DNA of 64,000 nucleotides from Verrucomicrobiota bacterium. GTDB taxonomy: Bacteria > Verrucomicrobiota > Kiritimatiellia > JAHIZV01. A program made the position numbers and the translations under genes. Positions within the stretch are counted from its first letter, which is position 1. Each line of letters begins with the position of its first letter. Shown here in pieces: positions 42,281 through 56,745 of the stretch. The stretch is taken from NCBI GenBank assembly GCA_018814445.1, contig JAHIZV010000218.1, positions 2,285 to 66,284 of the forward strand, given 5' to 3'. Under the pieces are notes generated by a model. The model worked only from the letters and a program-made list of their open reading frames with translations. It was not told the origin of the DNA and did no database searches.

Positions 42281-42327
42281 CGTCACATCATTCACTATCG
42301 TCTCCCGGGCGTTAAACATGGGGATGC

Positions 42328-42337
42328 TTTACGTAAA
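42328..42337. promoter_or_regulatory. Palindromic box TTTACGTAAA, site 3, in the divergent promoter between the two giant genes
   Basis: 'TGCTTTACGTAAACTTA' between the minus-strand gene ending at ~42280/42319 and the plus-strand SGNH gene. Confidence 0.5.
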
Positions 42338-42397
42338 CTTATGCAGTTTGCCGAACTGTTGAAGAGCCGGGACCATGCGAGTTATATTTGTCTCTAT

Positions 42398-45300
42398 ATG
42401 AACAACGCTCTCAGGATGCTTAGTCAACAAGGGGGACCCCGACCCAGAAATGTCGCCGCCGTTCTCTGGGGCGTACTCCTCACTTTGACGCTGACTGCAG
42501 CACCTTGCGGACAAGCAGCGCCTTCCAACGGTGTAATTGGTGTTCTGGGTTCCTCAGTGGCCAAGGGATACAACGGCGGCGGGGGATACACCAACGGATC
42601 GTACGTCGGTGGCTATATAGGCCAGCTGACGCCAGTCCTCGAACAACGGGGATGGGGCGTTACCAATGTATCCACACCGGGAGACAATACCTCGAAGGCG
42701 TACACCAACATCTTCAACAAACTGATTCCCGCAAATCCGGACTACGCCGTTGTGGCCCTCTCCCTCGCGAACCAGGGCCTGGTCTTTTCCTCGGATCGCG
42801 AAGCCACTCTGGAATCGTTCCGCTCCGGTCTGACCAACATCCTGCACACGATCACAACAAACGGAATCCAGCCCGTTGCCGTCACCCTCGTTTATCCGTC
42901 TCAGGCGTATACGCTGGACATGTACGACTACGTGAAACGAATGAACCTCATCATTAATTCATGGGACATTCCCAGTATCAACCTGATGGGCTCACAGAAC
43001 GACGAGCAGGGCCGGTGGGTTTACGAATATATTAACGACCCGTACCACCCTACGGCCGATGGACACGCCGAGTTTTTCTACACCGTCGTCCCCACCCTCT
43101 TCGATGCCATCCGAGTGGGAAAGACCAACCGGCCGTCGCTGCCGCCCACCGGCCGGTTCATGCGTGTTACACAGGAGAGCGACCAGCCTGCACCGTTGGT
43201 TTACGAGCCGGAATACACGATGCACTCCTTTACAGCGAACTTCCAGGTCCGGACCACCGGAACCGGAACCGTTGCCGCCATCCGTTCGAGCTATACCGAG
43301 CCCCTCGTGCTGATTGACTTCGGGCCAACCAACGATGCCCTCGGGCGCGCCACTGCCAGTCCGGATGCCTATGGGAATCATTGGAACAGCTGGCGTCCGG
43401 ATTCCCTGTCTGCGGGAACTGCGTCGAACAACTTAATCGATGTCGCCGGCGCACCTACCGCTATCGACATCGCAATTACCTCTGCCTTCAGCAGTGCAAG
43501 CGGACGCTCCAGCGGGTTCGGCCTTTTTCAGCCCGAGGGTCCCGACCCCGAACTGCTGGGTTCCCTGGCCGTCGAAACTGCTACCGAGGACTACTTCCGT
43601 CTGACCAGCAGCGCTGGACTGACGCTCAGTGGACTCGACACCGGCACGGTATATACACTGCGCATTTTCGCCTGCCGCGAATCCTCTGTCATGAAGCGTA
43701 CGACGGATTTCCAGGTGACCGACCGTAATGGGTCCACCACCTATTCGATGCTGACCTCGGGTGCCAACACGGGGCGGGACGGAGCCTATGACGGCAATAA
43801 CCATCGCGCGATCGGATTCCAGGATCTATATCCGAAGACCAACGGAACACTGCTTGTCTCGCTCAGCACCACGAACGAAGGGTTCATCAGCCTCATGGAG
43901 ATCGGGCGCTCCACGCCCGTGCCGACCAACATCTATGGTACTGTGGAAGTCCGTGACAGCTCTCTGGCGTATGTATCTCCCGGCGGCGTCGAGATCACCG
44001 CGCCCGTCGACGTCAATGACGGCGCCTTCCAAGACATAAGCCTCAGCCACAACTTCGCACTGCAGCGCACGTATCTGTTTGTGAACGGCCTGCTGTACGG
44101 AACGGTTGGAGAGCGCCTTGTTCCCGATCGTTTTGTCCTCGGCGGATCGGACCAGGCCGACGCTTCCGCTGCGCCGACACAGGCAGACTACCAGGCCTGG
44201 TGTCTCTATCGTTCGTCCTGGACTCCCGGCGAAGCAATGGCGCAGCACCTGGGCGCGCTTCAACAGGCCAGCCTTGAGGTGGCGGCCCCACTGGACGACG
44301 GCGCCTTCGCGCTCGACGATCCTGTAACCAACGTTGCGCAGAGTATGGCGAGTGCATATGTTCGCGGCACCAACGTGGAGGTCGGCATCGGCCCGACACC
44401 GCCCAGTTCGTTGACCGCGCGCTCGTACGATACCGACTCGATCGAGCTTTCGTGGAACAACAACGCCGGCGGCGGCCTGGGCACGGAACTGCATCGGCGA
44501 ACAGCCGGGACGCAGTGGAACCTTGCGGCGGATCTGGGCGCCGGGGTGGCTGCTTTCACCGACACCGGTCTGGACGCCGGTGAAGAATACATCTATCGGG
44601 TCGCAGCAAAGGACGGGGCCTTGTTGAGCGGATTCTCCACCTCGATAACCGCTTCTGTCGGAGCGGACGGATCAAGCTACGAGGAATGGATGTCGGACTA
44701 TATCCCGGGCGACTTGCGAACCTGGCTGATAGACTTCAACTCAACGGTGAGTACGAACTACGGGGGCGCGGTGTGGAACACCCTCTCGAGCTGGACCGAT
44801 GCCACACCTCGCGCGTTGGTCGATACCGGCGGCGTGACAGCCGCGCGCGCATCCATAGCTCTAATAGACCCTTTCGATACGTCCCGCTCCGGCAATGGAA
44901 GCCCTCTCAGCACCAACGACTACGCGGCCGATGCGCAGAGCACGCTGTTTGTATCCACCGAGTATCTCGACGACCAACTCGATGCGGGAAAGGCCAGTAT
45001 TCGATTGAGCGGCCTGAGGCGAAGCCTCAAGTACAACGTCACCATCTTCGCCCGCCGCGGCACGGTAGTATCGGGTTTCGACTATCGGAGCCGTTATGAG
45101 GTGGAGAGTCTCAACGGTAACTCGGCCGCCGAAGTCGACACAGCCACCAACGAAAATACCGTGATGTTCGCGGATCTCTCACCGGACGCAGACGGCAATA
45201 TCACCCTCAGCATCGGTCCCGCCGACAAACCGAACGGCGCGATCTTCGCCGGGATCAGCCTGATGAAGGTCAGCGAAGTTCCGCGGGTGACCAACGACTT

Positions 45301-46222
45301 TTATCTTGTTGATTTCGCCGCTGCCGACGGCACGACTTATGATGATCCCGGCTATGTCTGGAATTCCATTCCTACCAATATGCCTGAGAGCATGGCAACA
45401 AACCTGACCAATGAGCTCGGTGACGACTCCGACGGGTACACCCTTATATTCGATAAGAAGTTCAACCAGTATCGCAGCGGCAGCGGCTCTGTGGCGGGGG
45501 GGTATGACGATGTTGCCGAGGACACCTGTTTCGCGCTGGGAAGCGTTACCACGTATGCGGCCAAGATGACCTTTGGTGGACTCAACACAAATAGTCTGTA
45601 CGACTTTCTCTTTCTCGCGCGACGGCCCAATTTCTCCTCCTTCAGCAACCTCGGATCCTACAGCTTCGAAGGCAGCGGGGAACCCGTCACCGTAGTCGTG
45701 GACGGCCGCGAGAATGAGGGTTACACCTTTGTGGGTCCTATTACCCCTGACGCAGGCGGCGAAATCTCGCTATCCGTTTCAAACATGCCCACGGCGCTGA
45801 TTCCCTTTGCCGTACTCAACGTCCTGCGCATGAGTGAGCGCACCGGTGCCGCAGGCGGAGAAGCTACACGCGGAGTTTCCGGCGATGCGGACGCAGACGG
45901 GAACTCCAATCTGAAAGAGTATATCTACAACATGAACCCCCTCGTCACGGATGCGGTGCTGTCCGGATTCGAGCCAATCCTGACCCAGTCCGGTCCGTCC
46001 CAGGTTTCGCTTTGGTATGATCGCTATCTCCCGGCGTCCGACGTTGCGTATGAGGTACAAAGTCGAACCAATCTACTGGCAGGCGTCTGGGAAACCGCAA
46101 CGGGCTTAACCGAAACAGTGGTCAACGACAACCGAACCGTCCGTTCGCTGCGGCTTGACCACGCCATCGCTGACGAAAAAGACGAGCTGTACCTCCGCTT
46201 GAGAATGGACTACGCCCCGTAG
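42398..46222 (+). CDS. Giant secreted SGNH/GDSL-hydrolase multidomain protein (paralog 1). Architecture: SGNH, 'DFG-YWNS' domain, LamG-like, FN3, 'DFG' domain x2, dockerin-like plus beta-tail. The start is uncertain (alternatives 42341 and 42416). The track ORF from 42134 overlaps the divergent gene and was rejected.
   Basis: Signal '...MLSQQGGPRPRNVAAVLWGVLLTLTLTAAPCGQA'. SGNH blocks 'GVLGSSVAKGY' (Ser), 'VTNVSTPGDNTSKA' (Gly), 'VALSLANQGL' (Asn), 'DPYHPTADGHAEF' (Asp-x-x-His). 'LVLIDFGPTNDALGRATASPDAYGNHWNSWRP ... LSGLDTGTVYTLRIFACRES ... FISLMEI'. LamG-like 'YGTVEVRDSSLAYVSPGG ... LFVNGLLYGTV'. FN3 'PSSLTARSYDTDSIELSWNN ... YIYRVAAKDG'. C-terminal 'DADADGNSNLKEYIYNMNP ... YEVQSRTNLLAGVWET ... 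ELYLRLRMDYAP'. Confidence 0.75.
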   Translation: MNNALRMLSQQGGPRPRNVAAVLWGVLLTLTLTAAPCGQAAPSNGVIGVLGSSVAKGYNGGGGYTNGSYVGGYIGQLTPVLEQRGWGVTNVSTPGDNTSKAYTNIFNKLIPANPDYAVVALSLANQGLVFSSDREATLESFRSGLTNILHTITTNGIQPVAVTLVYPSQAYTLDMYDYVKRMNLIINSWDIPSINLMGSQNDEQGRWVYEYINDPYHPTADGHAEFFYTVVPTLFDAIRVGKTNRPSLPPTGRFMRVTQESDQPAPLVYEPEYTMHSFTANFQVRTTGTGTVAAIRSSYTEPLVLIDFGPTNDALGRATASPDAYGNHWNSWRPDSLSAGTASNNLIDVAGAPTAIDIAITSAFSSASGRSSGFGLFQPEGPDPELLGSLAVETATEDYFRLTSSAGLTLSGLDTGTVYTLRIFACRESSVMKRTTDFQVTDRNGSTTYSMLTSGANTGRDGAYDGNNHRAIGFQDLYPKTNGTLLVSLSTTNEGFISLMEIGRSTPVPTNIYGTVEVRDSSLAYVSPGGVEITAPVDVNDGAFQDISLSHNFALQRTYLFVNGLLYGTVGERLVPDRFVLGGSDQADASAAPTQADYQAWCLYRSSWTPGEAMAQHLGALQQASLEVAAPLDDGAFALDDPVTNVAQSMASAYVRGTNVEVGIGPTPPSSLTARSYDTDSIELSWNNNAGGGLGTELHRRTAGTQWNLAADLGAGVAAFTDTGLDAGEEYIYRVAAKDGALLSGFSTSITASVGADGSSYEEWMSDYIPGDLRTWLIDFNSTVSTNYGGAVWNTLSSWTDATPRALVDTGGVTAARASIALIDPFDTSRSGNGSPLSTNDYAADAQSTLFVSTEYLDDQLDAGKASIRLSGLRRSLKYNVTIFARRGTVVSGFDYRSRYEVESLNGNSAAEVDTATNENTVMFADLSPDADGNITLSIGPADKPNGAIFAGISLMKVSEVPRVTNDFYLVDFAAADGTTYDDPGYVWNSIPTNMPESMATNLTNELGDDSDGYTLIFDKKFNQYRSGSGSVAGGYDDVAEDTCFALGSVTTYAAKMTFGGLNTNSLYDFLFLARRPNFSSFSNLGSYSFEGSGEPVTVVVDGRENEGYTFVGPITPDAGGEISLSVSNMPTALIPFAVLNVLRMSERTGAAGGEATRGVSGDADADGNSNLKEYIYNMNPLVTDAVLSGFEPILTQSGPSQVSLWYDRYLPASDVAYEVQSRTNLLAGVWETATGLTETVVNDNRTVRSLRLDHAIADEKDELYLRLRMDYAP

Positions 46223-46854
46223 TCCATGAGACGTCGAAGCAGGCCCAGAACCAGCCCCCCTGCGAGCAGGAGAAGGAACGATGTCGGCTCTGGAATCAGC
46301 TGCAGGTTATTGAAGAAGATGTCGTAGGGAACGCCGCTCCCGTGCGGGTCCACCTGCAGGTGCAACCAGCTCAGATCCGACAGATCAAGGCCGGGCGTTG
46401 TTCCTGGATTTCCAATGAAGCTGTCGTCAATCCCTACGGTCTGAGGTACGGGACTAATCGGGAAGGTCAGGAGATGGTGCCCGGCGGCCAGCACTTCCCA
46501 GCGGTAGTTATATTGCGTGCCGTCACCGTCCTCGAGCAGCGCAATAACGTTGGGGAAATCACCGGCATTCACATCTATGTCGAGTTCTACATCCGTCTGG
46601 CCGGACGCATCGATATTCGGATTGATGTTGTACGCGCCACCTCCGAAATTCACGGCCTGCACATTGTAGTCGTTCGGATTCGAGACAAGCGTTGCATTCG
46701 TCCAGGATGAATAAGTGAAGTCGAGATTGAAGCTGTTGAAGTCCTCAATGAGAACCGGTGCAGCCTTTGCCGGCAGAACGGAAGCCCAAACGAGGCTTGC
46801 TGCTGCAACAAGGCAAACGGTGAGTCTAAGGGACAACGTCCGATCTCGCTTCAT
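46210..46854 (-). CDS. PEP-CTERM sorting-domain secreted protein
   Basis: Strong RBS GGAAGGAGAAAG before 'MKRDRTLSLRLTVCLVAAASLVWA'. C-terminus 'LIPEPTSFLLLLAGGLVLGLLRRL'. Confidence 0.75.
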   Translation of the reverse strand: MKRDRTLSLRLTVCLVAAASLVWASVLPAKAAPVLIEDFNSFNLDFTYSSWTNATLVSNPNDYNVQAVNFGGGAYNINPNIDASGQTDVELDIDVNAGDFPNVIALLEDGDGTQYNYRWEVLAAGHHLLTFPISPVPQTVGIDDSFIGNPGTTPGLDLSDLSWLHLQVDPHGSGVPYDIFFNNLQLIPEPTSFLLLLAGGLVLGLLRRLMDYGA

Positions 46855-46909
46855 CACACTTTCTCCTTCCTCATCATCTTGACGCACGGGTACATCCTTG
46901 CGCACGCTA

Positions 46910-47527
46910 TTAGAAGATGTGTCCACTCTTGTAGAACCGGTTGGTTTCGGCACCTTCCAGCCCAAGGTCTTCGGTGGCGACCCACTCCGCATGCCCATCC
47001 AGAAATGCTATGTTGATGCCTGTTTTGTGAGGGGTGTCGTCTCCCTGGTAAGGAAAATCGTAGGCATATGCAGCTTCGGCCGGATAGAGGATGCCGCCTG
47101 ATTTCCGAATGATAGCGTCGTGGGAGCAGAGGAATCCATTCATCTCATATTGAGTGTAGAAGGCACCGTAGTTGCCTTCAGGGTCCGCTGGCACCGCACA
47201 GTTCCAATGGTCCTCAGTCCCATCGTTCGAAGGACAATTGAAGACATTCACATTGTCGTCGAGATACGGCAGAAGCTGGGCCGTCGCAGCCCCCCAGTCT
47301 ATTCCCGAATTTCCGGTGTTCCCTCGATAAGGCAATTCGGGATCTGAATCATCAAAAAGCTTAGCCGCCGCCGTCGCGATCATACGCACGTTGTTCAAAC
47401 AGTAGGTCCGCCGCCCCCTCTCCAGAATACTCGTGACGACCGGCGTGAGAAGGGCTGCGAGCAGAAGGATAATGCCCATCACGACAAGCAATTCCATCAA
47501 CGTGAATCCATGGCTGCGTTTCTTCAT
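46910..47527 (-). CDS. Prepilin-type N-terminal cleavage/methylation protein with a DUF1559 (H-X9-DG) domain (type II secretion/type IV pilus pseudopilin-like)
   Basis: 'KRSHGFTLMELLVVMGIILLLAALL' class-III signal (G|FTLxE). C-terminal 'NIAFLDGHAEWV'. The track start at 47554 adds 9 residues. Confidence 0.8.
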   Translation of the reverse strand: MKKRSHGFTLMELLVVMGIILLLAALLTPVVTSILERGRRTYCLNNVRMIATAAAKLFDDSDPELPYRGNTGNSGIDWGAATAQLLPYLDDNVNVFNCPSNDGTEDHWNCAVPADPEGNYGAFYTQYEMNGFLCSHDAIIRKSGGILYPAEAAYAYDFPYQGDDTPHKTGINIAFLDGHAEWVATEDLGLEGAETNRFYKSGHIF

Positions 47528-47579
47528 GATCTGCTGGCATGAAATCATTGCCATGTCGCTTCATCTATATCTGCGCAAC

Positions 47580-47645: not shown

Positions 47646-48215
47646 ATGCGACACCGAATCATCATTACGGGTTTTGCTCTTGTCTTGAGTCTTCAGACTG
47701 CGCTTCCCGCCCATGGCAAATCCGGATCCGGCACAAAGTATCCGATATTCGGCCGGGTGTGGACGGAGGAAGAACTGCGCGAGGCCTACGAAAAGGTCTG
47801 GCGACTTTACGTCGTTGATCAGAGCAGCCGCATGATCCTTTACCATTGGGAGCGGGGAGCCTTTCTCCTTTCCGGGTCGATCAAGGACCGCGCTCCAGAC
47901 AGGAGGCTGATTATTGAGAGCGGCGGAAAGCTGGCGGCGGTCCAGTGTGAGGAGCTTATTACCTGGCGGTCCGGTGACACGATTGAACTGATGGTGCGCG
48001 AGGCGGGCACTCCGCAGTTCTCCTACAAGACGGAGGCCGGGACGCGTGAAAGCCTGCCCCAGTACGCTGACCTGACGCTTTCCTTCCGCGACTTCGTACG
48101 CTCCCTGCGTCGGGGACAGCACTATCCGGAACTCCCTGAATTGGGAACGAAGGCGAATAGAAAAGGGCTCTTCCGCACGGAGCGCGTAAAGACTAACTCC
48201 ATTGTCGACCGCTAA
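47646..48215 (+). CDS. Hypothetical secreted protein
   Basis: RBS AGGAA. Signal 'MRHRIIITGFALVLSLQTALPAHG'. No recognisable family. The track ORF from 47433 has a non-signal N-terminal extension. Confidence 0.45.
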   Translation: MRHRIIITGFALVLSLQTALPAHGKSGSGTKYPIFGRVWTEEELREAYEKVWRLYVVDQSSRMILYHWERGAFLLSGSIKDRAPDRRLIIESGGKLAAVQCEELITWRSGDTIELMVREAGTPQFSYKTEAGTRESLPQYADLTLSFRDFVRSLRRGQHYPELPELGTKANRKGLFRTERVKTNSIVDR

Positions 48216-50125
48216 CCTGCTTCCGGCGGACAGAGCAGCAGCGAGAAGGTGCAGGTTACGGGACCGTTCTCTATCCTGAGGAGAATCGTATTGAATCCCT
48301 GATCGAAATGGACCCGGCGGAAGCCTTCATCAATGCGCCACGGGCTGAAGCCGCGGTCCTGCCAGATGACGGTGTCGTTGATCCACACTTTTGCCGCGTC
48401 GTCTGAGGCGACGGCAACAATCATCTCGGTGGGTTCCTCGAAATACACCTCCGTATACCCGTAGTACGTCGAGCCCTCCATTTCCCGGGGCGGCTTGATG
48501 CGGATATTGTCGCTCTGATGAAATTGCCAGCGGATAACCTGATCGTTCTTGCCGACATATTCGGCGTCCAGGTCGACCAGCGTTTCCGGTGGAAGCGGAT
48601 CGTCGAAACCTGTCCGCCAGCCGTTCTCCCAAGGTCCTATCACATACCACGTGTCGATGTATAACCAGCCCGTTCGCGGGCTGTTGCGGTTGAACTTGCG
48701 TCCGGGGAGCGCCTGCTTCAGAACTTCCTCCTCGGAAAGCCGCGATGGACCGCGCGCCTGCCGCACCTCATCGCTCTGACCGGCGAAACCGGTCCGGATG
48801 CTTTTATGCGTGATATCCTGTCCGCCGCCGACCGCTCCGAAAGAAGCGTTGTCGCCGGTGTGGTTCTGCATGAACGGGCTCACGTCCACGTAGCGTCCCA
48901 GGTTTCCGCGAGCGGCATTCGCCAGCACAGCGGCCCGGCCTGCCGCGCCCTGCGTGCCCTCACCCTTTCCCTGCGCGCCCTCTCCGCCTTTCATACCGGC
49001 GATCTTCCTGCCGGTCTGTCCCATATTCTGTGCCTGCTGCCACATGTCGTGTACGTCACGCTCGGCCCGGTCCAGACCGGCTCGATACGCGTTCAGTTCC
49101 GCGATGGTCCGGGGCGGATCAGGCAGTGTGCCGGGCGAGAACTGCCGGGTTGGAGGCGGCACGCTGACGGCCTGCCAGGCGTCAGCCAGCGGCTTGTTCT
49201 CGTTCATCGCAATGTCCGCGGCCTTGACGGCTGTGAACAGCGCCTCGATATCCTCCTGCAATCCCGCGGCGGCCTCGTGCAGTTCGGGAACAGACATTCC
49301 CTCCAGCGATTGCTCCCAGTCCGGTTCGAGCGGACCCGGCGGTTCGTAACGTTCCGGGAGGTCATTCATTTCTTCCAACTCAAACGCTTCCACCTCGCGC
49401 AGAAGCCCGCTGATCTGATCGCGCGTGTAATTGACAAGGTACGCGACATGGTTGTCGTGGCGGACACGCTCTTCGTCCTGCACATACGCTTTCTGCGCTT
49501 CATCCAATTGCCGTATATACTCGTCCTGTCGGGAGCAGGTGATGCCGTGCGAGTCGCGAACGCGCTGCAGTACGCTGGGCAGGATGAGTCTTTCCGGCGC
49601 CGCCGTTACTCGCGTTTCGAAATCGGTCGATGCTGTGTGTACGAGCGGCGCAGCGGAAAGATCGGATTCACGATCCTGATTCTCCGCCCGCTCCACAAGC
49701 TGCGTGGTCAGCGGGTAGAGTTGATAGTAGAAGAACATACTTACGTCCTCAAATGAACGTACCTTGACTTCATCGAGTTGCAGCCGCTCCGCTTCCTGGA
49801 GTTCATCGCGGACTCGCTTCATGTCCTTGAGACGCTCTATCATCTTCTTCGCGCGTTTCTCTTCCTCGCCCCGCTTCAACTTCGTTGCGTCGTCCTCGCG
49901 CAGTTCCGTCCGATCGCGCTCCCGCCGCTTCCTTTCCTCCAGCCTCTTCAGGCGCTGCTGCGCCTGTTCATCGAGCTCCCGCACGTCAGCGGCCGTTTGT
50001 TCGAGCCGGCTCACCCGCAACGCGTCGATCGACACAAAGAGCAGGACAAGCGCAGCCTGAAGCGCAGCCGAGACGGCGAGAATGACCGGAAGGCGAACCC
50101 GTTTATCTGGTGTTGTAGAATTCAT
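48212..50125 (-). CDS. TolA/TonB-like membrane-anchored coiled-coil protein with a C-terminal jelly-roll (galactose-binding-domain-like) domain. It is the last gene of the exbB-exbD-exbD operon.
   Basis: N-terminal TM 'RLPVILAVSAALQAALVLLFV'. A long K/R/E-rich coiled coil follows ('EQAQQRLKRLEERKRRERDRTELRE ... EEEKRAKKMIERLKD'). C-terminal 'AKVWINDTVIWQDRGFSPWRIDEGFRRVHFDQGFNTILLRIENG' resembles the GH2-N/GBD sugar-binding beta-sandwich. Overlaps exbD by ~23 nt. Confidence 0.55.
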   Translation of the reverse strand: MNSTTPDKRVRLPVILAVSAALQAALVLLFVSIDALRVSRLEQTAADVRELDEQAQQRLKRLEERKRRERDRTELREDDATKLKRGEEEKRAKKMIERLKDMKRVRDELQEAERLQLDEVKVRSFEDVSMFFYYQLYPLTTQLVERAENQDRESDLSAAPLVHTASTDFETRVTAAPERLILPSVLQRVRDSHGITCSRQDEYIRQLDEAQKAYVQDEERVRHDNHVAYLVNYTRDQISGLLREVEAFELEEMNDLPERYEPPGPLEPDWEQSLEGMSVPELHEAAAGLQEDIEALFTAVKAADIAMNENKPLADAWQAVSVPPPTRQFSPGTLPDPPRTIAELNAYRAGLDRAERDVHDMWQQAQNMGQTGRKIAGMKGGEGAQGKGEGTQGAAGRAAVLANAARGNLGRYVDVSPFMQNHTGDNASFGAVGGGQDITHKSIRTGFAGQSDEVRQARGPSRLSEEEVLKQALPGRKFNRNSPRTGWLYIDTWYVIGPWENGWRTGFDDPLPPETLVDLDAEYVGKNDQVIRWQFHQSDNIRIKPPREMEGSTYYGYTEVYFEEPTEMIVAVASDDAAKVWINDTVIWQDRGFSPWRIDEGFRRVHFDQGFNTILLRIENGPVTCTFSLLLCPPEAG

Positions 50126-50528
50126 CGTAGGTGCGAATGCCCACATTGACCAGGCCGTTGAACCTGCAGAGATCGAGTACTTCGATCACGCGGTGAGTCG
50201 GCGTATCCCGGTCGACATCGAGCCGGATCTGCACGTCAGGCTCCTTGACCCCGACCTCTCTGATTTCTGTGTGAAGCGATTGAATCGTCGTCTCTTCTCC
50301 TTCGAAAAAGACGTCCCCGTCCTCATTGATACCGATGACGTAGTTGTCATCGGACGGCATCATCCTTTCCGCGGAGGTGGATTCGGGCAGTTCAATGTCG
50401 ATGTCGCGGTTGATCTTCCTGATCATCGTTGAGACGAGAAAGAAGATCAGCAGGAGAAAGACTGCATCGATCAAAGGCGAAAGCGGAATGCCTTCGTCTT
50501 CGTCATTGTCCTGTCGGCCTGTCAGCAT
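50103..50528 (-). CDS. exbD: Biopolymer transport protein ExbD/TolR (copy 2)
   Basis: 'IPLSPLIDAVFLLLIFFLVSTMI' single-TM ExbD/TolR signature. 141 aa. Confidence 0.85.
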   Translation of the reverse strand: MLTGRQDNDEDEGIPLSPLIDAVFLLLIFFLVSTMIRKINRDIDIELPESTSAERMMPSDDNYVIGINEDGDVFFEGEETTIQSLHTEIREVGVKEPDVQIRLDVDRDTPTHRVIEVLDLCRFNGLVNVGIRTYDEFYNTR

Positions 50529-50532
50529 GTGG

Positions 50533-51000
50533 TTACTCTTCGAACGGCTGGCGGATCTTGACGCTCACGTTCATGAAGCCGCGTAGTTTGCAGATGTCGA
50601 GAGCGTCGATCGTCCTTTGAAACGGCGTCTCGCGGGCGATGTCGAAACGTATGGGGCGAAGGAGCACTTCCGGACCTATGTCCCGCGCAAGCCGGTCGAG
50701 GTACTGGTCGAGTGTAGTGCCTCCCTGATATGAAAGGGCTCCGAAGCGGTCGCGTCCTGCGGGTTCGAGAAACGCACCGTCCCCGGACAGGCCGATGATC
50801 AGGGTGTCGTCGCGGGCTTCCGCGGACAGCGCCGAAGACGAGTCGGGCATGGTAATCGGAATCATCGTCTCCTTGCGCTTCAGCATCGTTGTCACTAGGA
50901 AGAAGATCAGCAGAAGGAACACGCAGTCGATCAGCGGGGACAGCGGAACATCCGCTTCATCTTCCACGCCGGGAACCCTTCTGTTGCGGCGGTAGAGCAT
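50533..51000 (-). CDS. exbD: Biopolymer transport protein ExbD/TolR (copy 1)
   Basis: 'VPLSPLIDCVFLLLIFFLVTTML'. 155 aa. 4-nt spacers on both sides. Confidence 0.85.
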   Translation of the reverse strand: MLYRRNRRVPGVEDEADVPLSPLIDCVFLLLIFFLVTTMLKRKETMIPITMPDSSSALSAEARDDTLIIGLSGDGAFLEPAGRDRFGALSYQGGTTLDQYLDRLARDIGPEVLLRPIRFDIARETPFQRTIDALDICKLRGFMNVSVKIRQPFEE

Positions 51001-51004
51001 GGGT

Positions 51005-51718
51005 TCAGGCGCCGGGCTTCTTCAGCAGCCAGGCGTTGATGAGGCGGTCCATCTCCTCGTCCAGCAGACGACCGAGGGACTGGATTTTGAATTTAAACAG
51101 GTGGTACAGGCCCAGAGAGGGAATGGCTATGATCAGTCCGAGCGCAGTGGTAATCAAAGCCTTGGAGATGCTGCCCGCGAGAATCGTCGCCCCACCCTCG
51201 TCGCCATAGATCTCTACGAGTTTGAAAGATTCGATCATACCGATAATGGTGCCGAGGAGTCCGAGCAGCGGAGCAAGTCCGGCAATCACCGCCAGCCCGT
51301 ACGCCTTCTTCTGTTCGTTAAGCAGTTCTCGATTGCCGATATCCGACGCGCCCTGAATGAGCAGTTCAGGGGGAGCTTCACGATGCTCGGCCAGGAAGGC
51401 TGCCATCCGGCTGATGGTCGAGGGGTGTTTCTCGCAGTACTCGTGCAGCTGCTGAAAACGCCCTGCGTGCCAGAGCGGAAGAACACTTTGCGTGAACTCT
51501 GCGGACACGATCCTTGCCGCCCGTAGATTGATCACCCTTTCGACTGCGATCGTTACCATCACAAACGTGAGAATGAACAGCGCGATGCCTGTGTTTCCCC
51601 CTTTTGTCAGTTCGTGAAGCCAGTCAATTTCGGCCGAAATCGTCTCCCCTCCCGAAACCTGCGCGAATGTGGTGAGAGGAGTTGTCAGGAAGATAAGAGT
51701 AGCCCATCGATACAACAT
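51005..51718 (-). CDS. exbB: MotA/TolQ/ExbB proton-channel protein
   Basis: Three TM helices. C-terminal 'LGLLGTIIGMIESF ... ALITTALGLIIAIP' MotA/TolQ/ExbB signature. The start codon abuts the stop of the upstream beta-helix gene. Confidence 0.85.
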   Translation of the reverse strand: MLYRWATLIFLTTPLTTFAQVSGGETISAEIDWLHELTKGGNTGIALFILTFVMVTIAVERVINLRAARIVSAEFTQSVLPLWHAGRFQQLHEYCEKHPSTISRMAAFLAEHREAPPELLIQGASDIGNRELLNEQKKAYGLAVIAGLAPLLGLLGTIIGMIESFKLVEIYGDEGGATILAGSISKALITTALGLIIAIPSLGLYHLFKFKIQSLGRLLDEEMDRLINAWLLKKPGA

Positions 51719-53470
51719 CTACATGTCCCTCCGCGTCGTGATATCCTGCTTGACCGTGAAGCCGGAGCCGCTCTCGTTGTTGATTAAACCGGAGGCCTCG
51801 CCTTCTGTGTCGAGGCCGATGATAACGAGCGAGCCCTGTGCGTTCGGCAGAATGTGAATACCTTCTGCTTTAAGCTTCTTGAGGCGGACATTACGAATCT
51901 CAGCATCGGCGACACGTTTCGGGCCCTGAACGCTGATTGCCGCGCCGTAGGGATCTTCGATATCCACGCCGGCGATCCGCACAGGTATCTCGATGTCCCG
52001 CTCCGGGGCGTGAAGCCATAGTCCACCGACGGACGAGCCGAAATAGCTCTCGCTTCCGGTTTGAATGAGCCGGTTGGACTGGATAACAATCGTGCCCCCA
52101 AAGGGCTCGGCCCCGTGTCCGGTGCTGAGGGTGATACCGGCTCCCGCATACACGTTCCCTATGACGGTATTGCCGATCACCCGATGATTACTTCCCCCGT
52201 AAATCGCGATGCCGTTTGCGAGCCAGGGGATCTCAACACGGTTATGCAGGAAGACGTTGCTGCTGCAGGGAACGCCCGAGGCCCATGAGGCTGTCGGCGA
52301 CCATGTAGCCAGACCGTCATCGCCGGTATTGCGGATATGCGAGCGCTCAACCCTGCACCTGCTTGATCCATCGCAGAAGTTGATACCATCCGCCATGGTA
52401 TTGCGAATACGGCAGTCGATAATCCGCAGATCACGAGTGCCGGGCGTGGACCATACACCGCATTTCACATGTTCGATCCACAAACGTTCCAGCAGGCTCC
52501 CCTCGCCCAGGTTGCCGTTGAAAGCATTATCAGCGGTCGCGTCGAACCTCTGATCGATATTTCCGAAAATCGCCAGATCACTCATCCGGAAGGTCTCCCC
52601 GTTGCCGCGGAATAGAACCGCGGAACCGGTCAGTCTGCTATGCCACATTCCGGAGCCCTGAATGGCAACTCCGCCCAGTGTGATGGGTGAGCCGTCGAGT
52701 CGGTAAGTTCCCGGCGGAATCCAAACGGTACGCCCCTCGTCTTTGGCCTGCTGGATTGCAGCAAGAAACGCGGGAGCGTCGTTGATGCCATCGTCCGCCT
52801 TCGCGCCATGATTGGTGATGGAAAGACTGTCTGCGGGTGCGGCGATTGGCGGCGGGACCTGTTCCAGTTCGATGAGATCGACGAGGTAGTAGGCGGCGGA
52901 ATCACCTTCGTCTATTTGCAGCCGCAATGTATCCCCGGGCTTTACCGCGTCAATCTGCGCATGGCTTTCGTCGAAGAACCGGTGCGGTTTCCCGTGGTCA
53001 GGGTGATTGAACCAGGGGAATCGACCGTAGACCCAGGCATAGCGGGACGACAGTTCCATTTTCTGCAGAAACTCGTCGTTCCGATACAGGCTCAGGGTTG
53101 CGTCGGTGCCGCGGCCCTCCGGCGCATCGGGAATCGAGGCCCGGACAACGATCGTGTTGGCGGGCTCGGTTACCTCGACTTCCACGAAGTCACCCATGTT
53201 CTCGAGGCGGACATAGCTTTTGCCCGAGGCTTCCGCTTCGGGGGTCAGATACTTACGGGAAGGGCCGTGCAAAGCGCCCTGGAACTGCCCGCTTTCGGCT
53301 TCATACGAAACCCAGGGAAACGGATCGGCGAGGCCCATCCCTTCCGGCGGCGCGGATGGCGGAGTAACGCATCCTCCCGCAGCCAGGAGAAAGCCGCCGC
53401 AAAGGCAAAGCCGCAAAGCAGCGAGGGCTGGTTGAATGCTTCTATGGTTCTTCTGGTGTCGATCCATCAT
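51719..53470 (-). CDS. Lipoprotein with an N-terminal CBM6/CBM35-like domain and a right-handed beta-helix (pectin-lyase-fold) catalytic-like domain. It is co-transcribed with exbB-exbD-exbD.
   Basis: Lipobox 'LAAGGCV'. 'VSYEAESGQFQGALHG ... ASGKSYVRLENMGDFVEVEV' (CBM6/35-type 'YEAE ... ASG'). Beta-helix repeats 'NTMADGINFCDGSSRCRV', 'NTGDDGLATWS', 'NGIAIYGGSNHRVIGNTV'. Confidence 0.7.
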   Translation of the reverse strand: MMDRHQKNHRSIQPALAALRLCLCGGFLLAAGGCVTPPSAPPEGMGLADPFPWVSYEAESGQFQGALHGPSRKYLTPEAEASGKSYVRLENMGDFVEVEVTEPANTIVVRASIPDAPEGRGTDATLSLYRNDEFLQKMELSSRYAWVYGRFPWFNHPDHGKPHRFFDESHAQIDAVKPGDTLRLQIDEGDSAAYYLVDLIELEQVPPPIAAPADSLSITNHGAKADDGINDAPAFLAAIQQAKDEGRTVWIPPGTYRLDGSPITLGGVAIQGSGMWHSRLTGSAVLFRGNGETFRMSDLAIFGNIDQRFDATADNAFNGNLGEGSLLERLWIEHVKCGVWSTPGTRDLRIIDCRIRNTMADGINFCDGSSRCRVERSHIRNTGDDGLATWSPTASWASGVPCSSNVFLHNRVEIPWLANGIAIYGGSNHRVIGNTVIGNVYAGAGITLSTGHGAEPFGGTIVIQSNRLIQTGSESYFGSSVGGLWLHAPERDIEIPVRIAGVDIEDPYGAAISVQGPKRVADAEIRNVRLKKLKAEGIHILPNAQGSLVIIGLDTEGEASGLINNESGSGFTVKQDITTRRDM

Positions 53471-53981
53471 CTTCCTCCACCGGTATGAGGATAAACTTCA
53501 TGCTCAGCCAGGCCTGGCTGAGCGGATCATACTGCACCTTGTCGGTTCCGGAATTCTCAAGGCTGATATAGGCTGTCTTCTGCCACAGGTTGTGAATCCG
53601 GCAGAAGGAGCCCTCAAGCACCAGGTTCCAACGGAAGCTGAGGAAAGTGGGCTCCATCGAAGAGACCTCAACAAAGCCTTCACGCCCTTCGATATTCAGC
53701 GCGTCTCCGGTCACCCGGTTACGAATCCAGTATCCCGGCGCGTCGGGGATGACCTCGAGATACCAATGGCCTCGCTGATCGTCCGCCTTCAATCCGGCGT
53801 CGTACAGAAGAAAGCGGCTGCCCTCCTGCTGGTACAGGCAGGCATCTCCGTAAAGGCCCTTCACCCGCACGAAGAGCGGCGAGTCCTCGCCTACGAATTC
53901 CTCAACGGTTAGGGCTAGTGATAACGGCGCAGCGATGGCGAGGATCGCCAAGGCAAAGAGGAAGTAGCGAAATCTAAGCAT
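53442..53981 (-). CDS. Hypothetical secreted protein, first gene of the operon
   Basis: Signal 'MLRFRYFLFALAILAIAAPLSLA'. Its 3' end overlaps the next gene by ~29 nt. Confidence 0.45.
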   Translation of the reverse strand: MLRFRYFLFALAILAIAAPLSLALTVEEFVGEDSPLFVRVKGLYGDACLYQQEGSRFLLYDAGLKADDQRGHWYLEVIPDAPGYWIRNRVTGDALNIEGREGFVEVSSMEPTFLSFRWNLVLEGSFCRIHNLWQKTAYISLENSGTDKVQYDPLSQAWLSMKFILIPVEEDDGSTPEEP

Positions 53982-54071
53982 ACGTGTCTCTCCTTAACTG
54001 TTGCAGATACTAGTTTCCAAAAAGGTCGCGTGCAACGTGATAGTGGCCGGTGTAGAAGCATGGGTTCGTTA

Positions 54072-54287
54072 TCAATCAAAATGCCGCATAACCGGTTTCG
54101 GCGAACGGTCCTCATAGCACAATCCCCAGTGCTTCCTGAGTATCGCCAGATCCTCTTTGATCTGTTCGCAAGAAGGGTAGATGTTCTCTCGAGGATTCTG
54201 TCCCGCACGATACCCGGAACAGCAGATGGCGTTGCAGAAATAGGCTCCCGTCAATTCGGTCAATTTGTCTGCCGGAGTCTTGTTCAT
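54072..54287 (-). CDS. Possible small Cys-containing protein (71 aa) immediately downstream of the GH1 gene
   Basis: RBS GAGGTG 7 nt before the ATG. 5 Cys, including 'CNAICC'. No homology recognised. An overlapping alternative ORF exists on the same strand. Confidence 0.3.
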   Translation of the reverse strand: MNKTPADKLTELTGAYFCNAICCSGYRAGQNPRENIYPSCEQIKEDLAILRKHWGLCYEDRSPKPVMRHFD

Positions 54288-54293
54288 CTTTGA

Positions 54294-55676
54294 TCACCTC
54301 GCGCAAGAAGCGTCATTACTGAGCAGTGCGCCATTGCTCTCTATCAGGTCGCGATACCAGTAGCCGGAATCTTTGATGACCCGCTTCTGAGTGTTGTAGT
54401 TCACATGTATGAGTCCAAAGCGCTGATAGAAGCCTTCCGCCCATTCGAAGTTGTCCATGATGGACCAGTGGAAGTAGCCACGGACATCGACGCCTTCGTC
54501 GATGCTCTCCTTCAGCCCGCGGAGATAGCGCGTTGTGAAGTCGATGCGTTTGGGATCATGCACCTTTCCGTCCACGCAGACCCAGTCATTCAGCGAGAGC
54601 CCGTTCTCGGTGATAATGATCGGTTTATGGTATTCGTCGTAAAGGAACTTCGTAGCCCATCGCAGCGACTGCTCGGTAATCGGCCAGTTGAACTGGGTAT
54701 GCGGATGGTGATTAGGATAGGGCACGACTTCGGGTTTTCCGTCTTCACCGGCTTTGACGGTGCCCGAGGCATAGATGTTCAGCCCCAGGAAATCCAGTTC
54801 CTGTCCGATCAACTCCATGTCGCCGTCCCTGATGGGCGGTCCATCGTCACCCCATGCCGCAAGGCCGTCTTGGGGATAACCGCCGCGGAAGCAGGGATGG
54901 AGGTTCCAGGTCGTGCAGAACACGTCACGTTTCTTGATGTCGAAAAACATGTGACGGGCGGCTTCAATATCCTCGGACGAAGTATTGGCCGGTATATATG
55001 TGTGAAAGCACGGGGCGAAGCCGACCTGCGGGTCCGGCAGCCTGGAATGCGCCCGGATGACTCGAACCGCGCGGCCGTGCGCGAGCATGGTGTTGTGCCA
55101 GACTCTTGTAAGTTCAATGTCGTTCAGTTTGAGGCCGGGGGCATGATGTCCATGCTGATGACCGTTGCCGATGAAGCATGCCGGTTCGTTGAGTGTGAAC
55201 CAGTGGCTGACACGGTCGGAGAGCCGGTCGACAATGAGACGGGTGTATTCTTCGAACCAGAGCGGCGAATCATCGTGCAGCCATCCACCCTTTTCAAACA
55301 GCGCAACGGGGTAGTCCCAATGGAAAAGAGTGACCCATGGCGTGACGCCTGCGCCGAGCAGTTCGTCCACGAGTTGATCGTAGAAGGCGACGCCTGTCTC
55401 ATTTACTTTGCCCGTGCCTTCGGGAAGAACGCGCGGCCACATGATCGAGAGGCGGTAGGCCTGCAGACCTATCTCTTTCATGAGGGCCACGTCTTCCCTG
55501 TAGCGGTTGTAATGATCGCAGGCGACAAAGCCGGTATCGCCCCCGCGGACGAATCCCTCCTTCTTGCAGCACATGTCCCAGACGGACTCGCCGCAACCAT
55601 CAACGCCCTGTGTCGAGCCCTCTATCTGGTAGCTGGCGGCGGCGGCACCCCAGACGAAATCTTTTGGAAAACACAT
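54294..55676 (-). CDS. GH1 beta-glucosidase
   Basis: 'FPKDFVWGAAAASYQIEGS' N-terminal signature. Acid/base 'TLNEP'. Nucleophile 'ITENG'. 460 aa. Confidence 0.9.
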   Translation of the reverse strand: MCFPKDFVWGAAAASYQIEGSTQGVDGCGESVWDMCCKKEGFVRGGDTGFVACDHYNRYREDVALMKEIGLQAYRLSIMWPRVLPEGTGKVNETGVAFYDQLVDELLGAGVTPWVTLFHWDYPVALFEKGGWLHDDSPLWFEEYTRLIVDRLSDRVSHWFTLNEPACFIGNGHQHGHHAPGLKLNDIELTRVWHNTMLAHGRAVRVIRAHSRLPDPQVGFAPCFHTYIPANTSSEDIEAARHMFFDIKKRDVFCTTWNLHPCFRGGYPQDGLAAWGDDGPPIRDGDMELIGQELDFLGLNIYASGTVKAGEDGKPEVVPYPNHHPHTQFNWPITEQSLRWATKFLYDEYHKPIIITENGLSLNDWVCVDGKVHDPKRIDFTTRYLRGLKESIDEGVDVRGYFHWSIMDNFEWAEGFYQRFGLIHVNYNTQKRVIKDSGYWYRDLIESNGALLSNDASCAR

Positions 55677-55786
55677 ATTCTCTTCCTCGCCTCGCTACCG
55701 GTCGAAACGCCGGCGTTCTCCCGATCAGACATGTTGCAGGATGACATATTAACTTGCTGACGGATCGTCGAGAGCTGCGGGTTATA

Positions 55787-55796
55787 TTTACGTAAA
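55787..55796. promoter_or_regulatory. Palindromic box TTTACGTAAA(G), site 5, in the divergent promoter between GH1 and the esterase-GH65-SGNH operon
   Basis: 'TATATTTACGTAAAGTCT'. About 110 bp upstream of the GH1 start and about 80 bp upstream of the esterase start. Confidence 0.5.
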
Positions 55797-55875
55797 GTCT
55801 AGGCCCGTTTGTTGCTTTGCAGGCCTTCTGCTTGAATCAAGCCCATGGAATTCACGGAAAGAGAGACTCTACACC

Positions 55876-56745
55876 ATGACATGCACACCTCGTTACATAT
55901 CCGCCGGTGTCCTTGGCCTGCTGGCGGGCCTCATGATTCCCGCCATTTCGGAATCCATCATGACTGACGTGCAGAGCTACAGGAAGGTTGAGAACATCGC
56001 GTACCGCGAGGGACCGGAGCTGGAGGACTATGCGCGGGAACGGTGTCGTCTGGACATCTACTTCCCCGAAGGCGCCGCAGACTTTGCCACCGTCGTGTGG
56101 TTCCACGGGGGCGGTATGACGGCAGGAGAGAAGTATGTGCCGGGTGAGCTAATGAACCAGGGAATCGCGGTCGTCGCGGCTGAATACCGATTAAGTCCGC
56201 ATGTGAACGCGCCTGCGTACATCGAGGATGCTGCGGCCGCTGTCGCCTGGGTCTTCAAGAACATCGAGCAGTATGGCGGTTCAACTCAACGGGTATTTGT
56301 CGCCGGCGCTTCTGCAGGGGGTTACCTCGCGACCATGGTCGGCCTCGACAACCAATATCTCGCGGCCCACGGCATGGACGCGAACCGGATCGCCGGACTG
56401 ATTTCGCTGAGCGGCCAGGCCATCACACATTTCACGGTTCGCGCAGAGCGCGGCATCAGCGGCACACAACCGATGGTCGACGAACTGGCTCCGCTGTTTC
56501 ACGTCCGTGGTGACGCGCCTCCTTTGCTGCTGGTCACCGGCGACCGCGATCTCGAACTCTTCGGCCGCTACGAAGAGAACGCGTATTTCCAGCGCATGAT
56601 GAAAGTAGTTGGCCATGCGGATAACGAACTGCACGAGCTTAAAGGCAGGGACCACGGCGGTGTGGAGGCGCCCGCGCACAGCCTTCTTCTCGAGTTTCTG
56701 AAAAGGATCAACAAAACCATATCAACTGCCGGAGAAACGAAATGA
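55876..56745 (+). CDS. Secreted alpha/beta-hydrolase esterase (Abhydrolase_3-type; candidate carbohydrate esterase)
   Basis: Signal peptide. 'VVWFHGGGMTAGEK' HGGG oxyanion motif. 'FVAGASAGGYLA' nucleophile elbow. ATGA overlap with the downstream GH65 gene. Confidence 0.8.
   Translation: MTCTPRYISAGVLGLLAGLMIPAISESIMTDVQSYRKVENIAYREGPELEDYARERCRLDIYFPEGAADFATVVWFHGGGMTAGEKYVPGELMNQGIAVVAAEYRLSPHVNAPAYIEDAAAAVAWVFKNIEQYGGSTQRVFVAGASAGGYLATMVGLDNQYLAAHGMDANRIAGLISLSGQAITHFTVRAERGISGTQPMVDELAPLFHVRGDAPPLLLVTGDRDLELFGRYEENAYFQRMMKVVGHADNELHELKGRDHGGVEAPAHSLLLEFLKRINKTISTAGETK

Follow-up and report, generated by a model that had tools for sequence, protein, structure and literature searches.

A four-gene ExbB/ExbD module of PVC bacteria with a candidate force transducer that ends in a beta-sandwich domain

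The window, the stretch of 64,000 nucleotides of verrucomicrobial DNA that was analysed, carries six ORFs on its minus strand at the coordinates originally given for them. In gene order these are p179 (53442-53981, 179 aa), encoding a secreted, beta-trefoil-like (CBM13-like) candidate lectin; a gene for a GH87-type alpha-1,3-glucanase (51719-53470, 583 aa), a probable lipoprotein; exbB (51005-51718, 237 aa), for an ExbB/TolQ-family proton-channel subunit; exbD1 (50533-51000, 155 aa) and exbD2 (50103-50528, 141 aa), for the first and second of two heterologous ExbD/TolR paralogues; and the gene for protein X (48212-50125, 637 aa), an inner-membrane-anchored candidate force transducer. In the same order, neighbouring genes overlap by 29 nt at the first junction and by 23 nt at the last, with spacers of 0, 4 and 4 nt in between, which bears out the tight packing described in the original prediction. 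Given the Pfam matches and the likeness of one product to solved alpha-1,3-glucanases, the six ORFs are judged to be true genes and not chance ORFs. The longest frame for X (48212-50146) is an ORF of 644 aa; the homologues begin at MNSTT, the second methionine (ATG at 50125), and X was therefore taken to be 637 aa, in agreement with the NCBI call. The 23-nt overlap between the X start and the exbD2 stop is identical in the gene calls of three related loci (L002, L003 and L004). The downstream neighbour of X is a convergent ORF of 260 aa without a Pfam match, and scans for promoters and terminators returned sites no commoner than in shuffled sequence and were uninformative.

ExbB matched the Pfam model MotA_ExbB (1.3e-21, above cut-off). 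Its best NCBIfam matches were TolQ, which gave the highest score, and ExbB, with scores far under both equivalog cut-offs. Residues T157, T190 and T191 were present in 66 of 66 cassette homologues and K186 in 63 of 66. Judged by the PF01618 match and the channel threonines, the protein is a member of the ExbB/TolQ/MotA family, but it could be assigned neither to the TolQ nor to the ExbB equivalog. ExbD1 and ExbD2 both matched the Pfam ExbD model above cut-off (1.7e-17 and 1.9e-27 respectively) and the membrane aspartate, D25 in ExbD1 and D21 in ExbD2, was kept in all 66 homologues of each; the combination of PF02472 and this essential residue assigns both proteins to the ExbD/TolR family. exbD1 always precedes exbD2 in related loci.

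Protein X begins with a cytoplasmic part of ∼17 residues, followed by a membrane anchor (50024-50095, minus strand, approximately residues 18-41 of the 644-aa ORF) that contains S26-x3-Q30. Q30 was invariant and S26 nearly so in the X alignment (A1). The subfamily of the window thus carries SxxxQ, with Gln replacing the His of SxxxH, the motif by which TonB and TolA bind the motor (PMC12204202). Across the 131 family representatives with an anchor, SxxxH was found in 63, SxxxQ in 17 and neither motif in 37. The anchor is followed by a helical region (48992-50023, approximately residues 42-385), K/R/E-rich at its start, and the AlphaFold2 model of X places helices at residues 19-383, mostly with pLDDT 80-97. 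A fold search with the full-length model returned no PDB match for this region, only the end domain being matched, and sequence searches against the PDB gave spurious coiled-coil matches for X and repeat matches for the profile. A disordered Gly-rich linker follows (48737-48991, approximately residues 386-470); pLDDT in the full-length model was <50 for residues 387-492, and alignment A1 was gap-rich and variable here. Outside the end domain mean identity was 24%, and among the more distant loci only 12 allowed the helical region to be aligned.

The C-terminal domain of X (48215-48736, minus strand, ∼175 aa), the signature of the family, was modelled as a galactose-binding-like/PA14-like beta-sandwich. 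The fold match of the model was to GH2-N and PA14-like domains, which at this level confirms the jelly-roll that had been predicted for the C-terminal end of X. No Pfam or NCBIfam model matched the domain; an hhalign comparison of its profile with a GH2_N-containing protein aligned the expected motif, but with a probability of only 2.5%. On the model, the likeness to carbohydrate-binding folds is structural only and comes without significant sequence similarity. Neither TonB_C nor TolA_C was matched in X at E<=0.1 with Pfam or NCBIfam. A scan of 23 ORFs in the 24.7-64 kb part of the window (the six genes and 17 large flanking ORFs) found no TonB_C, TolA_C, Plug or TonB_dep_Rec, as expected from the earlier statement that no TonB C-terminal domain or TonB-dependent receptor lies nearby; the same scan gave no match to SusD. 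The mean identity of the end domain to its homologues (52%) equals that of ExbD2 (52%), exceeds those of ExbB (46%) and ExbD1 (44%) and lies far above that of the rest of X. Conservation of this degree, with changing enzymes alongside, speaks for a single conserved partner and against a range of glycans, and it would fit a structural, Tol-like role equally with a role in uptake.

Upstream of exbB, the 583-aa protein matched CatAgl_D1 (2.9e-39) and CatAgl_D2 (3.7e-22), both over the gathering cut-off, and aligned over nearly its full length with the solved alpha-1,3-glucanases 7c7d_A (1e-66), 5zru_A (2.7e-64) and 6k0m_A (3.7e-38). These matches classify it as a GH87 enzyme of the mutanase/mycodextranase type, with a D1 beta-sandwich and a D2 right-handed beta-helix. 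What had been read as a CBM6/35-like domain plus a pectin lyase is D1 and D2 of one GH87 catalytic unit. A lipobox, AGG ahead of a Cys that follows 'LLAAGG', was read by eye from the sequence and makes a lipoprotein plausible. p179 has an N-terminal hydrophobic signal-like segment, also read from the sequence, and its phmmer match (E=1.2e-5) was to residues 316-420 of 1ups_A, the C-terminal domain there, with an IRNRxTGxxLxIE motif that recurs. It had no Pfam or NCBIfam match and no homologue outside its own MAG, being its own only match in a search of 5.8 billion proteins; p179 therefore appears to be locus-specific and outside the conserved core. Further upstream, 312 nt from p179, lies a gene for a GH1 beta-glucosidase (54294-55676, minus strand, Pfam Glyco_hydro_1 1.5e-138), and a GH1 gene also adjoins the cassette in L001, L003 and L004. 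A GH65 glycoside phosphorylase/hydrolase is encoded on the plus strand (56742-59063), with Pfam matches to the GH65 N, m and C domains (central domain 1.4e-89); L003 also has a GH65 gene. Together with a GH99/GH71-like protein and LacI and GntR-type regulators, these genes place the module, as judged from their annotation, in an alpha-/beta-glucan utilisation island of Verrucomicrobia.

The order exbB-exbD1-exbD2-X was found in 69 of 84 distinct loci and 11 more were cut by a contig end. Loci carrying this core belong to Verrucomicrobiota, Planctomycetota, Lentisphaerota and Kiritimatiellota; a betaproteobacterial match (Massilia) is cut by the contig end, so its context is uninformative. The X C-terminal domain is present in >2,000 protein clusters (50% identity), and 253 loci were found in the species-representative genomes scanned. 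There are often several cassettes per genome, some X genes have no adjacent motor and one tandem X-X pair was seen, a pattern that resembles the paralogy of TonB. The conserved core is these four genes and not six. In the closest relatives (L001, L003 and L004) p179 and GH87 are replaced by a non-homologous pair, a TPR-like small protein and a GH2_C-like TIM-barrel enzyme, and the sole GH87 matches, in L003 and L004, were differently placed. As p179 is moreover an orphan, the proposal of a conserved six-gene operon was rejected.

The genes that flank the cassettes are heterogeneous, with 122 Pfam families among 120 neighbours and housekeeping genes included (L005). LacI was the commonest family (11 of the 195 neighbours scanned); next came pectate-lyase-fold proteins, several GH families and sulfatases. 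The link of the cassettes with glycans is an enrichment judged by eye. Since the flanking genes vary across the superphylum, the functional tie to a polysaccharide enzyme that had been proposed is local to the GH87 locus and does not characterise the system as a whole. L047 was the only locus with a confirmed TonB-dependent receptor; the filter reduced 247 large ORFs in the loci to 10 with an aromatic last residue, of which the five most plausible candidates were scanned, and it may miss some. Prepilin-like DUF1559 genes gave no sign of enrichment near the cassettes (14 genes in 1.21 Mb). TolB, Pal and CpoB were seen neither among the neighbour matches listed (the 25 most frequent families per scan) nor in the window ORFs scanned.

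In the textbook view, diderm bacteria convey inner-membrane energy to the outer membrane through Ton and Tol, and both use one homologous end domain; TonB_C (PF03544) binds the TonB box of outer-membrane transporters, and an exbB-exbD-exbD-tonB operon layout is common in Bacteroidota. The X module shares with ExbB-ExbD-TonB an ExbB/TolQ-family channel, ExbD/TolR subunits with the essential membrane Asp, and a downstream single-pass inner-membrane protein with SxxxH (in the family), a long spacer and, at the C-terminus, a globular domain, as well as multiple paralogues per genome, some away from the motor, and a setting in carbohydrate loci. It differs in that X ends in the GH2-N/PA14-like beta-sandwich and not in TonB_C, that its spacer is helical and Gly-rich whereas that of TonB is Pro-rich and rigid, that Gln stands for the motif His in the subfamily of the window, and that the filtered search confirmed a receptor at a single X locus. 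With TolQ-TolR-TolA it has in common the motor family, an SxxxH-type anchor and a long alpha-helical middle region; unlike Tol-Pal it has no TolA C-terminal domain, two different TolR/ExbD genes, several copies per genome and, as far as was seen, no TolB, Pal or CpoB nearby. Unlike PA14 lectin and GH2 N-terminal domains, the X domain is fused to a putative motor-coupled anchor and not to an enzyme or adhesin, and it is set apart from them by the lack of a Pfam match and by the low hhalign probability. The window also differs from a SusC/SusD-type polysaccharide utilisation locus in having no susC or susD in the ORFs scanned (24.7-64 kb). The Akkermansia MUL1 locus may include ExbB/ExbD genes.

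The nearest precedent is a vWA end domain behind tolQ-tolR-tolR in PVC bacteria, described in a 2025 survey that expected more such systems still to be found (Mol Biol Evol 2025, PMC12204202). The gene layout, the superphylum and, in the closest relatives of the window (L001, L003 and L004), a small upstream TPR gene are shared with the vWA transducers, whereas the X end domain is a PA14/galactose-binding-like beta-sandwich and not a vWA fold. The text of that survey contains no occurrence of PA14, galactose, sandwich or jelly and does not mention the X class, and no description of the exbB-exbD1-exbD2-X module was found in the literature searched. In view of the 69/84 synteny and of SxxxH in half of the family, the original description of an uncharacterised variant of the Tol/Ton theme was fair.

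These data suggest that exbB-exbD1-exbD2-X encodes a proton-driven inner-membrane motor of the ExbB/TolQ type with a dedicated periplasm-spanning partner. The ExbD component would probably be a heterodimer of ExbD1 and ExbD2. X would dock to the motor through a single membrane helix like that of TonB and TolA and cross the periplasm by its helical segment and flexible Gly-rich linker, and the beta-sandwich at its tip would stand in for the TonB/TolA C-terminal domain. Driven by the proton gradient, the motor would then pull on anything that the end domain grasps at the outer membrane or close to it. In the window the module appears to be translationally coupled to the GH87 alpha-1,3-glucanase and a small lectin-like protein, and its job would most likely be to power a step of glycan capture or import close to the outer membrane. 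In such a role the module would resemble TonB while lacking TonB_C and, to judge by the loci, a TonB-dependent receptor. That X works as a motor-coupled transducer and that its end domain defines a new class is considered probable. A role of the X module in glycan acquisition, taken alone, is put forward tentatively, at somewhat under even chances, and the statement as a whole, a motor-coupled X transducer energising outer-membrane-proximal glycan capture or import, is moderately favoured.

Other roles for the same genes were weighed. X may be a PVC analogue of TolA that binds peptidoglycan or a conserved outer-membrane lipoprotein and serves in tethering or constriction, the glycan genes being incidental. 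This reading, which we regard as unlikely, draws on the long helical middle region, similar to TolA domain II, on the preference of ExbB for the TolQ model and on an end domain conserved as the motor is, which fits one invariant envelope ligand. The paralogous cassettes and the orphan and tandem copies of X speak against it, Tol being normally single-copy, as do the repeated proximity of the cassette to LacI regulators and glycan-active enzymes and the lack of TolB, Pal and CpoB among the neighbour matches listed and the window ORFs scanned. In its favour, at least one PVC representative, Tichowtungia aerotolerans, has no discernible TolA or TonB (PMC12204202).

The module could alternatively act, not in import, but on outer-membrane machinery by which lipoprotein glycanases such as GH87 are exposed or moved; it would then energise the export of the enzymes encoded beside it, their display at the surface or their release, or else surface adhesion or gliding. 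In the window the gene that immediately precedes exbB, on its strand, does encode a secreted or lipoprotein enzyme (GH87), a GH2_C-like enzyme takes that position in L001 and L003 and sits two genes further upstream in L004, and a pectate-lyase-fold family recurs across 13 loci, 5 times as the gene directly upstream of exbB; the authors who described the PVC vWA transducers have speculated that these serve gliding (PMC12204202). Most cassettes, however, have no such enzyme directly upstream, and genes for secretion systems or adhesins show no consistent linkage, which leaves this explanation a rather poor prospect.

It is very doubtful that X is a periplasmic glycan sensor whose PA14-like domain detects oligosaccharides and signals to regulators, the ExbBD genes being mere neighbours. 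RsgI anti-sigma factors do carry PA14-type sensor domains, and LacI, GntR-type and two-component regulators are frequent among the neighbours, but the short segment before the anchor leaves X nearly without a cytoplasmic portion for signalling, X is linked to motor genes and to no regulator, and the domain is too conserved for such diverse loci. Finally, it is scarcely credible that X is a canonical TonB or TolA, so diverged that the profile searches overlooked its C-terminal domain: the membrane motif and gene position match those proteins, but canonical identity was ruled out by the Pfam, NCBIfam and fold evidence.

If X is indeed a motor-coupled transducer, it would represent, after vWA, a second and much larger class of non-TonB end domain behind the same motor. 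Verrucomicrobiota, Planctomycetota, Lentisphaerota and Kiritimatiellota are known for bringing large glycans into the periplasm, and the occurrence of the module in their carbohydrate-utilisation loci makes it a candidate, concrete enough to be tested, for the step that couples this uptake to energy. In a bolder and improbable version, the module would supply the energy coupling of a 'selfish' machine, found only in the PVC superphylum, that imports glycans without a receptor. The lectin-like end domain of X would hold on to the glycan chain itself or to a conserved component of the outer membrane or of a pilus-like structure, and the motor would reel large polysaccharide fragments into the periplasm; if true, this would explain the accumulation of labelled polysaccharide by Planctomycetes and Verrucomicrobia without SusC/D. 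With the X end domain, family curation, structural studies and genetics in tractable PVC strains gain a defined protein domain to work on, and the module is a candidate for how PVC bacteria power sugar capture without a classical TonB system.

The six minus-strand open reading frames placed by the original prediction were recovered at exactly the same coordinates. They encode a secreted 179-aa protein (p179, 53442-53981), a GH87 glucanase (51719-53470, 583 aa), ExbB (51005-51718, 237 aa), two ExbD paralogues, ExbD1 (50533-51000, 155 aa) and ExbD2 (50103-50528, 141 aa), and protein X (48212-50146, a 644-aa open reading frame), and carry locus tags KJ626_14385 to KJ626_14410 in the Verrucomicrobia metagenome-assembled genome (MAG). 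The first two genes overlap by 29 nt and the last two by 23 nt; the three junctions between these measure 0, 4 and 4 nt in gene order. All homologues of X start with MNSTT, which places the initiation codon in the window at the ATG at 50125; the predicted length of 637 aa fits this start and is also the NCBI gene call (residue numbers for X follow the 644-aa frame). ExbB matched Pfam MotA_ExbB (1.3e-21), ExbD1 and ExbD2 matched Pfam ExbD (1.7e-17 and 1.9e-27 respectively), and NCBIfam gave no assignment of the motor genes to Tol or Ton equivalogs.

Sequence searches of Pfam, NCBIfam and the PDB with X returned no match. A full-length AlphaFold2 model of X showed a membrane helix followed by high-confidence helices to residue 383, and a disordered Gly-rich stretch (residues 387-492) before the C-terminal end domain. 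The C-terminal 180 residues, modelled with a 39-sequence alignment, formed an all-beta sandwich (pLDDT 92.9, pTM 0.89), for which Foldseek retrieved the PA14 inserts of GH3 and GH31 enzymes (E about 2e-5). The jelly-roll, sugar-binding-like C-terminus that had been proposed was thus confirmed at the level of fold, and the modelled beta-sandwich contradicts the alternative that X is a bona fide TonB or TolA. Alignment of the end domain with a GH2_N-containing protein by hhalign covered only the 'ASDDAAKVWIND' strand, at 2.5% probability; as modelled, the similarity to PA14 and GH2-N-type domains is structural only. In an alignment of X and its close homologues C632 was invariant and C639 nearly so ('TCTFSLLLCPP', the last two end-domain strands, 48215-48250), a pattern that suggests a periplasmic disulfide. 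The domain also has an invariant pair of Asp residues, D582/D583.

A word-indexed search with X found 12 relatives only; when the end domain was used in an exhaustive HMMER scan, 2,069 clusters were recovered at E<1e-3, of which 341 reached E<1e-30. The domain was always C-terminal, in proteins of 450-1,130 aa which nearly always had an N-terminal membrane helix. SxxxH, the motor-binding motif of TonB and TolA (PMC12204202), was present in 63 of 131 family anchors. SxxxQ was present in 17, including the whole of the window's subfamily, His alone in 13 and neither motif in 37. Swayne and Postle are said to have found in 2011 that E. coli TonB keeps its activity when His20 is changed to Asn, so the Gln of SxxxQ would, by analogy, not be disqualifying for motor binding. 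Just past the anchor (residues 42-45, 50011-50023) the window's subfamily carries a [DE]-[PA]-L-R-[KR]-[ST] motif, with L43 and R44 nearly invariant among the close homologues, and distant family members have related 'PWxxTxM' or 'DLRR' motifs; this element could be a contact with the motor.

Species-representative genomes were scanned; 253 loci emerged, and the 80 best were retained. By record title nearly all loci belonged to Verrucomicrobiota, Planctomycetota, Lentisphaerota or Kiritimatiellota. Cultured members of the Verrucomicrobiota were among them: Haloferula luteola, Thalassobacterium maritimum and three species of Cerasicoccus. Some assemblies, several in number, yielded two or three loci each. 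Gene order was tallied by searching 84 distinct loci with the window's proteins. The order ExbB-ExbD1-ExbD2-X was found in full in 69/84 loci and was cut by a contig end in 11, and the two ExbD paralogues never changed places. Three loci (L019, L043 and L044) had X without a motor within 7 kb and one (L045) had ExbD1-ExbD2-X-X with a tandem pair of X genes, which mirrors the sharing of motors by TonB paralogues. The end domain also occurred in a few Oxalobacteraceae records, with Telluria and Pseudomonadota matches; the only such locus fetched, from Massilia sp. LXY-6 (L086), was cut by a contig end.

The motor residues were strongly conserved. The membrane Asp of each ExbD and ExbB residues T157, T190 and T191 were present in 66/66 cassette homologues, and both a Glu at ExbB residue 163 in membrane helix 2 ('GMIE') and K186 in helix 3 ('SKALITTA') were found in 63/66. 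The position of K186 is presumably that of Glu176 in E. coli ExbB. The helix-2 Glu and helix-3 Lys may be a charge pair that has changed position, and would then mark these motors as a clade.

With the window as reference, mean identity over the 65 more distant loci holding all four genes was 52% for the end domain of X, 52% for ExbD2, 46% for ExbB and 44% for ExbD1; the rest of X averaged 24% and was alignable in only 12 of these loci. Recognition of diverse glycans should make the end domain vary with the locus, yet it is conserved, and we infer from this pattern that it behaves like a machine part touching a constant partner. This partner could be a protein of the outer membrane, peptidoglycan or some other conserved glycan. 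The conservation beside diverse loci argues against the earlier proposal that the arm binds the local polysaccharide.

The genes flanking the cassette were variable, and the six genes did not hold as a unit, GH87 and p179 not being conserved partners in relatives. In their place, the three nearest relatives whose upstream DNA was long enough (L001, L003 and L004) encoded a ~155-aa TPR-like protein, then a ~450-aa GH2_C-like TIM-barrel protein, both without homology to p179 and GH87; the pair lay directly upstream of exbB in L001 and L003, whereas in L004 a GH1 and an N_methyl gene stood between the pair and exbB. The same three loci also held GH81, GH1, GH17, GH30, GH65 and large GH87 proteins, and the window's subfamily therefore resides in alpha-/beta-1,3-glucan loci. 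Neighbours varied widely across the superphylum. LacI regulators led with 11 of the 195 neighbours scanned, followed by pectate-lyase-fold proteins, whose cluster occurred in 13 loci, directly upstream of exbB five times. GH1, GH2, GH10, GH31, GH81, sulfatases, SASA and GDSL esterases and two-component systems came next, and unrelated housekeeping genes were also present. Among the candidate outer-membrane proteins checked, only one TonB-dependent receptor was found (L047).

The 583-aa protein had been described as a CBM plus beta-helix lipoprotein but is a GH87 alpha-1,3-glucanase, with matches to Pfam CatAgl_D1 (2.9e-39) and CatAgl_D2 (3.7e-22) and to solved alpha-1,3-glucanases (1e-66 to 4e-38). 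p179 had no Pfam match, and a word-indexed search of 5.8 billion proteins returned p179 alone. It did match the C-terminal domain of a Clostridium endo-beta-galactosidase (1ups_A, E=1.2e-5), a region that we take to be a beta-trefoil of CBM13-like fold, and carries a repeated IRNRxTGxxLxIE motif. As it has recognisable lectin-like repeats yet no other homologue in that search, p179 is a lineage-specific accessory gene, joined to the operon by its 29-nt overlap with the GH87 gene.

The surroundings at 24-64 kb are a glycan-utilisation island holding two beta-helix proteins, an LTD/CotH giant, a GH99/GH71-like protein, a LacI regulator, two GDSL+fn3 giants, a DUF1559 pseudopilin-like protein, GH1, an esterase, GH65 and a GntR-type sugar regulator. 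The ORFs scanned across 24-64 kb contained no TonB_C, Plug or TonB-dependent receptor domain, in agreement with the absence originally noted. GH87, GH1, a BD-FAE/Abhydrolase_3 esterase and GH65 are grouped at 51719-59063, and in L003 GH65 is paired with a HAD-family hydrolase, possibly a beta-phosphoglucomutase. The GH87 enzyme would yield nigero-oligosaccharides, and GH65 includes nigerose phosphorylases. The set looks like a complete route by which this Verrucomicrobia MAG could turn alpha-1,3-glucan (nigeran/mutan) into glucose, with the substrate assigned from what is generally known of GH87 and GH65.

Paralogous plus-strand giants of 1362 and 1258 aa (42134-46222 and 59152-62928), each with an N-terminal GDSL-lipase domain and an fn3 domain, flank the locus, and a 2841-aa BACON_2 + GDSL relative adjoins the cassette in L001. 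Two tandem beta-helix proteins (24742-27092) precede a 1624-aa protein (27229-32103) with five Lamin Tail Domain matches (7.5e-64) and a CotH kinase-like domain (9e-33). A PEP-CTERM-like protein with C-terminal 'PEPTSFLLLLAGGLVLGLLRR' adjoins a prepilin-type N_methyl/DUF1559 protein (46210-47554), both on the same strand and a short way downstream of the cassette region. L002 and L004 likewise have N_methyl genes next to the cassette; over all loci the frequency near cassettes was 14 per 1.21 Mb, with no evidence of enrichment.

The best-supported reading is that the cassette encodes a proton-driven motor of the Ton/Tol type together with a force transducer dedicated to it. An ExbB pentamer and an ExbD1/ExbD2 heterodimer, a stoichiometry taken from the family, would drive X, in which a PA14/galactose-binding-like sandwich would have replaced the usual end domain. 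In the window this module is translationally coupled to the GH87 glucanase and the lectin-like protein, in a locus that could degrade alpha-1,3-glucan to glucose. Rival explanations are that the system serves the envelope in a Tol-like way, that it powers the display or export of the enzymes, or that it acts as a sensor; given the coupling and the glucan-to-glucose locus, the most likely role is to energise a step of glycan acquisition at the outer membrane. According to studies of Akkermansia, Verrucomicrobia take large glycan or mucin fragments into the periplasm, and 'MUL' genes are required. The 2025 survey of motor-driven force transducers (PMC12204202) makes no mention of a beta-sandwich or PA14 class, and other literature searches gave no description of such transducers; the suggestion of an uncharacterised Ton/Tol variant is judged right. 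The X family is very large, phylum-spanning and uncurated, and bears on the question of glycan uptake in PVC bacteria.
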